Positions 1-986 of a stretch of 986 nt of DNA are shown piece after piece. Location: the NCBI RefSeq assembly GCF_003334385.1, contig NZ_QOWN01000137.1; one strand, 5' to 3'. The position numbers and the translations under genes are program-made. Origin of the DNA: Escherichia coli. GTDB taxonomy: Bacteria > Pseudomonadota > Gammaproteobacteria > Enterobacterales > Enterobacteriaceae. The notes under the pieces were generated by a model. It saw only the letters and a program-made list of their open reading frames with translations, had not been told where the DNA came from and made no database searches. The first letter of the stretch is position 1, and every line of letters starts with the position of its first letter.

Positions 1-986
1 GGGCCTGCATCACCTTTGGGACCAGCTGCACCAGCCGGTCCCCGTGGGCCTGCGGGCCCCACTGCACCAGGTGCGCCAGGTTCCCCCCTGTCCCCCTTCG
101 GTCCGGGGACTGCTGCCCGGGTTGCTGCCTCTTCTGCCTTCGTTTTTGCTGCCTGCACTTCTGCCATTACCGCTTTCACAGCCTTTGGGGTTGCCGCTTT
201 TGTTTCATCATCGCTGTTGGTATCGCTGCTCAGCTGTACAACACCTTTCTGTGATGTGCTGGCATCCGGAACACTGGCGACACTGCCTGCGGGACCCGCA
301 GGACCTGCGGGGCCGGTTTCTCCCCGAGGGCCTGCGGGACCTGCCGGACCTGTTGCGCCGGGTTCACCTTTATCCCCTTTCGGGCCGGTTTGCCCTGCCG
401 GACCCTGTGGTCCGGGTGGTCCGGCCTCTCCACGTGGGCCGGTGTCACCTTTCGGCCCCGGCGGTCCGCCCGGGTCACCTTTATCGCCCTTCGGTCCCTG
501 TGGACCTGTTTCTCCCCGTTCTCCCTTTGGCCCCGGCTCACCTTTTGGTCCGACCGCCCCCGTTGCCCCGGCTGGTCCCTGTGCCCCTGTGGCACCCTGT
601 GGACCTGTGTCCCCCTTCTCGCCCGCCGGTCCCCGGGCATTCTCTGCCCGTTTCTTCGCTTCCTCTGCACTCGCCGCCGACGCTTCAGCACGCTTCAGGA
701 TTTCCGCTGCCACCGCTTCCAGCTCTGCAAGCGCTTTCGGGTAATACTGCGCCTCATCCTGTTCCATCAGAAATTTATTCAGCGTTCCCGGCTCAGAATC
801 CGCCTTCACCAGAATGTCACCCACATACGACGGGGCGTACCCTTCCGTGTTCAGCGTCACCCGGTACCACCCCGGCTCCACATCAAAACTGTAACTGCCG
901 GTTTCCCCCGGCTGCCCCTGCGCCACCGTGGTGACTATCACTGTCTCTGTGGTGCGTCGCGCTTTCAGCTCTATGGTGCATCCCGG
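1..986 (-). CDS. stf: Phage side tail fiber protein, Stf-like, with collagen-like Gly-X-Y repeats; internal fragment, partial at both ends (N-terminus lies beyond position 986, C-terminus beyond position 1)
   Basis: Minus-strand frame with codons complementing 984-986 down to 3-5 is open for all 328 codons; I checked it codon by codon. Translation N to C: [328 protein letters not shown]. The N-terminal part resembles, from memory, the N-terminus of phage lambda Stf (CTIQLKARR...SQPGTLNDFL), and the VQLSS...AATPKAVK motif is the phage tail-fibre repeat signature. Codon usage (CTG Leu, AAA Lys, GAA Glu) is enterobacterial. The symbol stf is a family-level assignment, not a specific orthologue. 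No search was run. Confidence 0.92.
3..104 (-). repeat. Collagen-like Gly-X-Y repeat tract 2 (residues 295-328), at least 11 triplets, continuing beyond the window start
   Basis: [34 protein letters not shown] has perfect Gly periodicity from G295 to G328 and is truncated by the window edge. Confidence 0.88.
105..164 (-). other. Region encoding a short Ala/Lys/Glu-rich helical spacer (residues 275-294)
   Basis: [20 protein letters not shown] lies between the fibre repeat and the second collagen tract. Helix prediction is from composition only. Confidence 0.4.
165..254 (-). other. Region encoding a phage tail-fibre repeat motif (Phage_fiber_2-like), residues about 245-274
   Basis: [30 protein letters not shown] closely matches the conserved repeat remembered from lambda Stf and related fibres ([25 protein letters not shown]). 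Identified by eye, not by HMM. Confidence 0.75.
285..632 (-). repeat. Collagen-like Gly-X-Y repeat tract 1 (residues 119-234): 18 plus 20 triplets separated by a single extra Gly
   Basis: Gly occurs at every third residue from G119 to G170, then GG at residues 173-174 (+ coordinates 465-470) shifts the register by one, and periodicity continues from G174 to G234. X and Y positions are rich in Pro, Ala, Lys, Glu, Thr and Gln, typical of bacterial and phage collagen-like sequences. Confidence 0.9.
633..776 (-). other. Region encoding an Ala/Glu/Lys-rich predicted alpha-helical linker, possibly trimeric coiled coil (residues 71-118)
   Basis: Sequence [48 protein letters not shown] has a strongly helix-favouring composition with no Gly or Pro except one Pro. 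Helix or coiled-coil assignment is an inference from composition only. Confidence 0.5.
777..986 (-). other. Region encoding the conserved N-terminal tail-fibre domain (Phage_fiber_N-like, tail-attachment end), residues 1-70 of the window translation
   Basis: Residues [68 protein letters not shown] resemble the lambda Stf N-terminal region as I recall it. Composition is beta-rich and not collagen-like, and this DNA is less GC-biased than the collagen tract. The lambda comparison suggests the true start codon is roughly 15-20 codons beyond position 986. Confidence 0.75.

Follow-up and report, generated by a model that had tools for sequence, protein, structure and literature searches.

In-frame length variation and mosaic junctions in the collagen-coding tracts of an Escherichia coli prophage side tail fibre gene

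The stretch of 986 nucleotides of Escherichia coli DNA that we analyzed (hereafter, the window) belongs to the shaft-coding region of a Stf homologue, a side tail fibre gene of a lambdoid prophage that encodes an EPclC-type collagen-like protein. Close relatives of this gene differ in length, and the differences are restricted to the collagen tracts, occur in a quantum of 9 bp, have junctions with more short homology than expected and, in most cases, have clean flanks; the junctions of mosaic alleles fall in the same tracts. We consider it probable (about 0.75) that the repeats in these tracts reflect coding periodicity together with old duplications, that misalignment at short homologies gives rise to alleles differing by whole triplets, and that the tracts serve in addition as crossover zones.

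The window DNA was a 100% match to positions 198082-199067 of NZ_CP075632.1, which belong to an E. coli prophage gene for a side tail fibre (protein WP_096849294.1), and a single reading frame is open throughout it on the minus strand. Gene positions were converted by subtraction, the window position being 1038 minus the gene position. The domain layout is as follows:

1..986, minus strand: internal gene fragment (gene nt 52-1037) of the 1563-bp, 520-aa side tail fibre gene
636..986, minus strand: PfN (PF08400) N-terminal domain, residues 18-134 inside the window, with a short Ala/Glu-rich stretch after PfN
462..632, minus strand: collagen tract Col1a, 19 Gly-X-Y triplets, PF01391 match at residues 135-190
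456..479, minus strand: conserved one-residue interruption of the Gly-X-Y pattern, G-D-P-G-G-P-P-G, read from the translation
279..458, minus strand: collagen tract Col1b, 20 triplets, harbouring the repeated 12-mers, PF01391 match at residues 191-249
135..260, minus strand: Pf2 (PF03406), phage tail fibre repeat, residues 260-301 (E=8.7e-16), non-collagen, separating the two collagen regions
1..104, minus strand: start of collagen tract Col2, which has 39 triplets in total and extends past the left end of the window

In a Pfam search with the whole protein, PF08400 matched residues 1-134 over the full length of the model (E=2.4e-42), PF13620 also matched (residues 5-82), and there was neither a match to PF06820 (PfC) nor any Pfam match past residue 301. 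The Col domains comprise residues 136-253 and 312-428, which corresponds to lengths of 118 and 117. The gene is a part of a prophage tail module, with genes for minor tail protein L, a C40 peptidase, a tail assembly protein and gpJ upstream, and a DUF4376 gene, designated "tail fibre assembly protein" in some phage records, as its downstream neighbour. An Eib-type YadA-like gene was also seen just downstream of the fibre gene. The fibre gene is also carried by PhiR12_1 and PhiR5_1, phages whose records are complete genomes naming a host; a literature search for the PhiR12/PhiR5 phages gave nothing relevant. PGAP was observed to break seemingly intact or near-intact copies of the fibre gene into pseudogene fragments.

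The preliminary description of this DNA had claimed that whole Gly-X-Y blocks are gained or lost in frame. Copies of at least 96% identity, compared in 26 complete E. coli genomes and 6 phages, did not have the same triplet number but fell into eight gene length classes (1572, 1563, 1554, 1518, 1509, 1500, 1491 and 1437 bp). We mapped 14 indel events (13, if both 54-bp placements represent one event) between copies that are about 96-100% identical; 13 of the 14 indels are multiples of 9 bp, and all of them keep the register, as had been claimed. PhiR12_5 and a Citrobacter homologue, which are too diverged or mosaic for unambiguous gap placement, were excluded from the event counts. Each of the 14 events is located inside the collagen tracts, even though these tracts make up 45% of the gene (binomial P=1.5e-5). 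In Col1 there were 7 indel events vs 5 SNP sites, and in the 856 nt of non-collagen sequence 0 indels vs 29 SNP sites.

The observation from which this analysis started was a 12-mer, GCCTGCGGGACC, claimed to occur twice, 45 bp apart and with an imperfect extension around the copies, and a related 11-mer in the second collagen tract. Both k-mers are where they had been placed. The coding-strand (minus) sequence of the 12-mer is GGTCCCGCAGGC, which specifies G-P-A-G; the other copy of the 11-mer is at 328-338. The repeats relevant here are:

285..296, plus strand: 12-mer copy 1, exact; retained repeat of the 18-bp (GPA)3 to (GPA)1 indel
330..341, plus strand: 12-mer copy 2, exact; retained repeat of the 63-bp indel
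46..56, plus strand: 11-mer GGGCCTGCGGG, core of the 282-bp-offset duplication (3-101 vs 285-383)
279..368, minus strand: two adjoining 45-bp (5-triplet) units, 33/45 identical, from the in-phase self-comparison

Matches with at most 2 mismatches were clearly in excess of dinucleotide shuffles (7 observed vs 0.33 expected). The exact 12-mer was nevertheless rejected as significant by itself, as an exact repeat of at least 12 nt was present in 77-91% of nulls in which the protein and codon usage were kept or Gly-X-Y blocks were shuffled, and in 61% of sequences from a stricter per-position codon shuffle. The number of 12-mer repeats was likewise ordinary under the protein-keeping nulls (4 observed vs 3-4 expected, P=0.35-0.51), and the 12-mer is surpassed in length by the 14-mer ACAGGTCCACAGGG (coding strand) at 496-509 and 595-608, the longest exact repeat of the window. 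Thus, collagen coding is sufficient to yield the exact k-mers as such, and yet they mark two real diverged duplications. In a self dot-plot limited to the same Gly-X-Y phase, in which the background identity is about 50%, they are the cores of the two top-ranked diverged duplications, with offsets of 45 bp and 282 bp. The 45-bp-offset pair rises above the in-phase background, in agreement with the claimed extension, its identity being 73% across 45 nt, at the 99.8th percentile of in-phase pairs, and 81% across 27 nt. No other internal repeat in the whole gene is as good as the pair with the 11-mer and the 282-bp offset (identity of 80% across 45 nt and 70% across 99 nt).

As in a VNTR or contingency locus, copy number varies among close strains, but the 45-bp units, just 73% identical, are not the near-identical head-to-tail units of such a locus. 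In the window, TRF detected just 9-bp mini-arrays with about 2 copies each and no 45-bp array; in a sibling allele (L016), the 45-bp unit is amplified to 7.5 tandem copies. Since the repeats are short and diverged and there is no 45-bp array, the events look like deletions between dispersed microhomologies. A role of a DNA hairpin or quasi-palindrome in window 270-365 was considered and rejected: the fold of this region stood out against dinucleotide shuffles (z=-3.95), but not beyond synonymous-codon resampling (P=0.43 for the coding strand and 0.07 for the plus strand), and is a by-product of GGN-CCN-GCN coding.

The indels that fall within the window, together with the tandem repeat that varies in copy number, are listed below:

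297..314, minus strand: 18-bp indel, (GPA)3 in the reference vs (GPA)1 in E. coli GCA_048002085
342..404, minus strand: 63-bp indel in JE86-ST05/ST02, UCPROB-001/002 and further genomes, exact junction GGTCC
317..361, minus strand: 45-bp in-frame deletion in SCU-104, CCGGC junction, in the same 45-bp register as the 12-mers
407..424, minus strand: perfect 9-bp tandem repeat CCGGACCAC (coding strand), two copies
416..442, minus strand: 27-bp deletion in SW0716xx strains, CCGG junction
277..285, minus strand: 9-bp deletion (GSV) in JE86-ST05, CAGTGT junction, abutting 12-mer copy 1
26..70, minus strand: 45-bp deletion in JNEC-KY208, CTGGT junction, spanning the 11-mer at 46-56
354..608, minus strand: 255-bp deletion in one metagenome scaffold (short-read), junction ACAGGTCC

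The proposal that the 12-mers are substrates for recombination or slippage found support. For each exact copy there is one indel in which that copy is the repeat retained and a near-copy its partner: the copy at 285-296 pairs with the near-copy 303-314 in the 18-bp contraction, and the copy at 330-341 with the near-copy 393-404 in the 63-bp indel, where the 12-nt boundary copies match at 10/12 positions. As mutual partners the two 12-mers did not fare as well, as no sampled allele joins both exact copies, and neither the product of recombination between them nor an expanded allele was present among 120 homologues; one 45-bp deletion, that of SCU-104, did occur in their register, with CCGGC microhomology. 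This deletion comes from one assembly, and the same copy has a TAG stop. None of the alleles inspected was a Pf2-deleting one, as could arise from the repeat with the 11-mer and the 282-bp offset.

The 9-bp tandem at 407-424 has three copies (GPP -> GPPGPP) in strain JNEC-KY204, in protein P0008 and in phage PhiR5_1. One unit is lost from an exact repeat pair of 16 nt. A Citrobacter farmeri homologue has undergone the same (GPA)3 to (GPA)1 contraction with another resolution, the junction codon being GGC and not GGT. The 45-bp deletion at gene position 968 is inferred in seven genomes, mapped in JNEC-KY208 and in six more recognized by a shortened match span. The 255-bp deletion takes out the one-residue interruption (an extra Pro codon), and the Gly-X-Y phase is kept.

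As is characteristic of deletion or duplication between short direct repeats, the endpoints of the events lie in direct repeats beyond chance: in the 11 events first mapped, exact junction homology had a mean of 5.6 nt vs about 1.0 for random same-length deletions, and 0/5000 resamples reached 5.6 nt. Three of these 11 junctions have homology of at least 8 nt, and several junctions have just 1-4 nt. For each of the leading short-offset in-phase diagonals (18, 45 and 54 bp) there is an observed deletion allele. The flanks are also clean for most events, but not for the 9-bp difference of JNEC-KY202 at gene position 1183, which is inside a patch of 17 SNPs in 80 bp and was imported by recombination, not produced by slippage. 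With JNEC-KY202 set aside, SNPs at most 40 bp from indels numbered 10/1363 vs 0.0101 elsewhere, and most flanks were SNP-free.

That modules are swapped between fibres, as had also been claimed, was confirmed. One N-terminal part occurs with four different distal parts and, in the reverse case, this distal part is shared while the N-terminus is another one. The mosaic junctions are at gene nt ~532-599 and ~1027-1183, every one within a collagen tract. The orf-401 of P-EibA is 99% identical over gene nt 1-1027, and in PhiR5_2 the N-terminus of the fibre differs.

We propose that the repeats have two causes: Gly-Pro-Ala runs written with few codons would impose a 9-nt periodicity, and old diverged duplications, namely the two adjoining 45-bp units and a roughly 100-bp segment flanking the Pf2 domain on both sides, would be superimposed on it. 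Short homology is common to any pair of in-phase positions, and this would make the collagen tracts prone to misalignment. Each event would remove or duplicate one repeat together with the interval, either in replication, when strands slip or switch templates at short direct repeats, or by short-homology recombination, and only changes preserving the Gly-X-Y register, in which one triplet would correspond to about 0.87 nm of triple helix, would survive; therefore, the alleles would differ by whole triplets. Being of low divergence and tolerant with respect to frame, the tracts may also be crossover zones joining N-terminal (tail-attachment) and C-terminal (distal) modules of different prophages. 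The anatomy of the junctions suggests slippage as the molecular mechanism, the designation of each event as a deletion or an insertion gives its presumed direction, and fibre length or host range may be affected. The 9-bp quantum could be explained by selection alone.

Alternatively, the repeats could be a passive by-product of Gly-Pro-Ala-rich collagen coding with no mutational role, and the length differences could be due to ordinary homologous recombination, or to gene conversion, involving diverged prophage fibre genes of the same cell, followed by selection for the Gly-X-Y register. Exact 12-mers are indeed expected under the protein-keeping nulls, there are up to 8 related places per genome, mosaic alleles are plentiful, the 9-bp difference of JNEC-KY202 is in an imported patch, and PhiR12_5 differs by 63 mismatches and compensating indels; moreover, Ghosh et al. 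account for the modularity of prophage collagen-like proteins by prophage recombination (PMC3368898). However, the flanks of most indels are free of SNPs, the copies concerned being about 99% identical in other respects, and junction homology is well over the random in-register level, an excess that register selection alone does not predict. The increase of a perfect 9-bp tandem from two to three copies and the loss of one unit of a 16-nt exact repeat pair are also against this explanation, and we regard it as unlikely.

Far less probable still is that errors of sequencing or assembly, for instance, repeat collapse in GC-rich repetitive DNA, created the length variants. The copy of strain G1/2, which has only 2 mismatches to the reference and is annotated as frameshifted in RefSeq, shows six deletions of 1-2 bp, mostly within short G/C runs; these deletions are likely errors, and both the 45-bp deletion of SCU-104 and the 255-bp deletion are known from one assembly each. 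Nevertheless, several variants recur in independent complete genomes (the 1437-bp class in four, the 1500-bp class in three and, as inferred, the 45-bp deletion at gene position 968 in seven), for which reason assembly artefact was rejected as a general explanation, identical protein-level alleles turn up in separate database entries, and all variants are in frame and, the 255-bp event aside, multiples of 9 bp. Assembly collapse would also be unlikely because typical assembler k-mers and reads exceed the junction repeats (1-18 nt) in length.

Whether misalignment at short homologies goes beyond passive instability is a separate matter, and we are doubtful that the collagen tracts are selected, hypermutable modules for length tuning and splicing. 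If they were, the excess of indel events over SNP sites in Col1 (7 vs 5) would allow a phage lineage to tune the reach of its fibre fast in steps of about 0.9 nm, e.g., to the thickness of O-antigen or capsule, distal receptor-binding domains could be attached in frame at the tracts even between phages of unrelated type, as with the different N-terminus of PhiR5_2, and the synonymous-codon pattern and kept duplications would be maintained for the variability that they supply. Side tail fibres give faster adsorption and a wider host range to lambdoid phages, including carriers of virulence genes. Should collagen tracts readily allow shaft length and distal domains to change, near-identical prophages could not be taken to have equivalent fibre genes.

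The gene shares with λ Stf (orf-401/orf-314), and with the mosaic fibres of lambdoid and other phages, its place after J, the PfN and Pf2 domains, a next gene recorded in some phages as "tail fibre assembly", and swapping of the C-terminal domain. The shaft of λ Stf is Ala/Ser-rich and, to our knowledge, devoid of collagen tracts; in contrast, the crossover junctions described here concentrate in Gly-X-Y coding DNA.

Collagen triplet number is also known to vary in Bacillus anthracis BclA, where it is linked to filament length, and both BclA and streptococcal Scl1/Scl2 vary via near-perfect tandem units. The collagen tandem repeats of Legionella Lcl are typed as a VNTR, and their triplet number is linked to binding strength (PMC6460258). 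The present gene resembles Lcl, BclA and Scl in the in-frame variation of triplet number between strains, but differs from them in that the repeats of the window are short and diverged, with only 9-bp mini-arrays. The Lovett laboratory has reportedly described how, in E. coli, replication that slips or switches templates at short direct repeats leads to deletions and duplications. Our events are similar to these in having endpoints in short repeats, one copy retained, distances of 9-255 bp, clean flanks, and the gain or loss of a tandem unit; they differ in that some junctions have just 1-4 nt of homology.

The closest counterpart is EPclC (Ghosh et al. 2012, PLoS One 7:e37872, PMC3368898), of which P-EibA ORF-401 is an example. 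The likeness includes the PfN-Col-Pf2-Col order with a non-PfC C-terminus and the G-X-P-G-G-P-X-G interruption in Col, which is GDPGGPPG here, and the entry ECED1_2081 is equal in protein and Col lengths (520 aa; 118 and 117); at the protein level, there is no difference. A trimeric collagen triple helix has been demonstrated experimentally for rEPclA (PMC3368898), and the Gly-X-Y tracts of the present protein may form one as well. The protein family, its whole-triplet length variability, with Col lengths of EPcl proteins varying by multiples of three residues, and modular fibres were thus already described by Ghosh et al. (2012, PMC3368898) and for other bacterial collagen-like proteins. What our result mainly adds is junction-level detail: DNA-level junctions, the 9-bp quantum, junction homology and the indel-to-SNP ratio, small additions that are absent from PMC3368898.

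The minus strand of the window contained a single open frame through all 986 bases, and the window matched NZ_CP075632.1 (E. coli 2018-166) at 198082-199067 with 100% identity. There it forms nt 52-1037 of a 1563-bp gene, used here as the reference, the product of which, WP_096849294.1, is named 'prophage tail fiber N-terminal domain-containing protein'. Upstream of this gene are the genes of minor tail protein L, a C40 peptidase, a tail assembly protein and gpJ, and downstream are a DUF4376 gene (tail fibre assembly protein in some phage records) and, about 1.4 kb past the fibre gene, a gene with a YadA C-terminal domain (L001:8906-10231 among the compared loci). 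The gene layout of prophage P-EibA is matching, with eibA, encoding an immunoglobulin-binding protein, in the position of the YadA gene, which suggests that the window probably derives from an Eib-type lambdoid prophage. The features of the fibre protein, encoded on the minus strand, were as follows:

Residues 1-134: PF08400 (Pfam)
Residues 135-249: PF01391 collagen, two matches (Pfam)
Residues 136-192, window 462-632: Gly-X-Y tract
Residues 194-253, window 279-458: Gly-X-Y tract
Residues 260-301: PF03406 (Pfam)
Residues 312-428, window 1-104 (part in window): Gly-X-Y tract

Among copies of the gene with at least 96% identity in 26 complete E. coli genomes and 6 phage genomes, we found lengths of 1572, 1563, 1554, 1518, 1509, 1500, 1491 and 1437 bp, with two distinct alleles of 1554 bp and three distinct haplotypes of 1518 bp. 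Thus, the number of triplets differs among related copies in whole-triplet steps, as the preliminary description had anticipated. With alleles recovered via the protein database taken in, 14 indel events were mapped (13 if both 54-bp placements represent a single event). All 14 were in the 45% of the gene that is collagen tract (binomial P = 1.5e-5), and the remaining 856 nt contained no indel events and 29 SNP sites; the first collagen region had 7 indel events versus 5 SNP sites. The indels were multiples of 9 bp in 13/14 cases, and the 255-bp event takes out an extra Pro codon and preserves the Gly-X-Y phase. Selection for Gly-X-Y register probably adds to this 9-bp quantum. These events inside the window were (window positions, gene on the minus strand):

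297-314: 18-bp indel, (GPA)3 to (GPA)1, E. coli GCA_048002085 and Citrobacter farmeri; near-copy 303-314 of the 12-mer joined to exact copy 285-296
317-361: 45-bp deletion, SCU-104, junction CCGGC
342-404: 63-bp indel, JE86-ST05 and others, junction GGTCC; 12-mer near-copy 393-404 fused to exact copy 330-341
407-424: +9 bp, PhiR5_1, JNEC-KY204 and P0008 (a homologous protein), perfect tandem of CCGGACCAC, going from two copies to three
416-442: 27-bp deletion, SW0716xx, junction CCGG
277-285: 9-bp deletion, JE86-ST05, junction CAGTGT
26-70: 45-bp deletion, JNEC-KY208, inferred in six more, junction CTGGT
354-608: 255-bp deletion, single metagenome scaffold, junction ACAGGTCC
Left edge of window: 9-bp deletion, EC2, junction GCAGGCCC

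The 12-mer claimed at 285-296 and 330-341 (GGTCCCGCAGGC on the coding strand, encoding G-P-A-G) was present at both sites, and so was the 11-mer at 46-56, with its second copy at 328-338. The 12-mer family was strongly over-represented relative to dinucleotide shuffles (7 sites within 2 mismatches, 0.33 expected). However, an exact repeat of at least 12 nt occurred in 77-91% of nulls that kept protein and codon usage or shuffled Gly-X-Y blocks, and in 61% of stricter per-position codon shuffles, so the exact 12-mer is an ordinary outcome of collagen coding. More telling was the imperfect extension reported around the 12-mer. In a self dot-plot restricted to in-phase pairs, the 45-bp-offset pair reached 73% identity across 45 nt (99.8th percentile) versus a background of about 50%, and the 282-bp-offset pair (285-383 vs 3-101) was the strongest internal repeat of the gene. 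The k-mers therefore mark two diverged duplications. No exact direct repeat in the window was longer than the 14-mer at 496-509 and 595-608 (ACAGGTCCACAGGG on the coding strand, T-G-P-Q-G), whose copies are spaced by 99 bp (11 triplets); a 99-bp indel matching this spacing was absent from sampled alleles. Additionally, window 270-365 folded into a hairpin (-30.6 kcal/mol; z = -3.95 relative to dinucleotide shuffles). Self-complementarity is inherent in DNA that encodes Gly-Pro-Ala (GGN-CCN-GCN), and the fold showed no excess over synonymous-codon resampling, so we regard it as a coding by-product.

In the 11 events first mapped, mean exact junction homology was 5.6 nt versus about 1.0 in random same-length deletions within collagen, and 0/5000 resamples attained the observed value. 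A deletion allele was observed for each of the three highest-ranking in-phase diagonals at short offset (18, 45 and 54 bp). Most events had no SNPs in the flanks within 40 bp, which fits local misalignment rather than import. From this junction anatomy, we infer slippage as the probable cause of these indels. The 9-bp difference of JNEC-KY202 was inside an 80-bp patch with 17 SNPs, indicating that homologous replacement contributes too. The 18-bp contraction was resolved with junction codon GGT in E. coli and GGC in Citrobacter, suggesting that it arose independently in each. The SCU-104 45-bp deletion, seen in a single assembly, shares the register of the 12-mers, given that 33/45 positions are identical between the two adjacent 45-bp units, and it was resolved upstream of the 12-mers. 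No product of exchange between both exact 12-mers was found among 120 homologues. Thus, the proposal that in-frame repeats are substrates for slippage or recombination held with respect to whole-triplet changes, junction homology and 12-mer copies at two junctions, but not as a joining of both exact 12-mers. Past gene nt ~599, up to which it shared about 95% identity with the reference, the sibling allele L016 carried a tandem array (L016:2064-2400) with 7.5 copies of a 45-bp unit (GPKGDTGDTGPAGPQ) at 90% match; five-triplet units can thus expand in this fibre gene family. Taken together, these results confirm the repeats and support the earlier reading of them.

Module swapping between fibres, also proposed earlier, was evident as the same N-terminal part with different distal parts. 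P-EibA orf-401, UPEC-245U and JNEC-KY208 were 99% identical to the gene from nt 1 to ~1027, ~1047 and ~1183, respectively, beyond which their collagen and C-terminal domains differ, and L016 was about 95% identical across nt 1-599. PhiR5_2 and JNEC-KY173 (L017:500-2434 and L018:559-2520) carried fibre gene nt ~532/576-1563 at 95-97% identity. In both, this distal two-thirds was fused to another N-terminal domain (~230 aa), and a 'phage adaptor protein' is encoded upstream, indicating that the fibre shaft and tip serve another phage type too. In all these cases, the junctions were within collagen tracts.

In a more distant class of homologues (P0023-P0120, 65% identity), proteins were of 616-688 aa, with length equal to 616 + 3 x (triplets - 55) and modes at 55, 67 and 79 triplets, i.e., steps of 12 triplets (108 bp), suggesting the gain or loss of a larger repeat unit. 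The JNEC-KY204 and SCU-104 copies (L009:101-1618 and L002:2950-4467) are separate pseudogene fragments in RefSeq; the JNEC-KY204 frame is intact, without internal stops, and the SCU-104 copy has one TAG stop at gene nt ~1228. It seems that low-complexity collagen genes are poorly handled by automatic annotation. The 1556-bp G1/2 copy (L004:101-1656), frameshifted according to RefSeq, has six 1-2-bp deletions, chiefly at short runs of G/C. Elsewhere it matches the reference with about 99.9% identity, and we take the deletions as probable sequencing or polishing errors, not true frameshifts. P-EibA orf-401 (L019, GenBank AF-series) has a 3-bp deletion in the CCGGACCAC tandem at gene nt ~623 (window ~415), giving GPRPQ, an additional break in the Gly-X-Y pattern; this deletion may be genuine, as a non-9n indel, or may reflect a sequencing error.

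The protein family and this kind of variability are already known, and our junction-level analysis is an incremental addition. Polymorphism in Gly-X-Y number is established for BclA and Scl1/2. It is likewise established for Legionella Lcl (PMC6460258), and in EPclC-type proteins Col lengths vary by multiples of three residues, with a modular architecture consistent with prophage recombination (Ghosh et al. 2012, PMC3368898). At the collagen rise of 2.9 Å per residue given there, the calculated collagen shaft is about 68 nm, and sampled alleles would alter it by +0.9 to -25 nm. By its domain content, the fibre gene has the architecture of EPclC, and its GDPGGPPG is the conserved G-X-P-G-G-P-X-G interruption. 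Table 3 of the same paper lists P-EibA ORF-401, 99% identical to the gene here across nt 1-1027, and ECED1_2081, which has the same total length (520 aa) and the same Col lengths (118 and 117) as the fibre protein described here.
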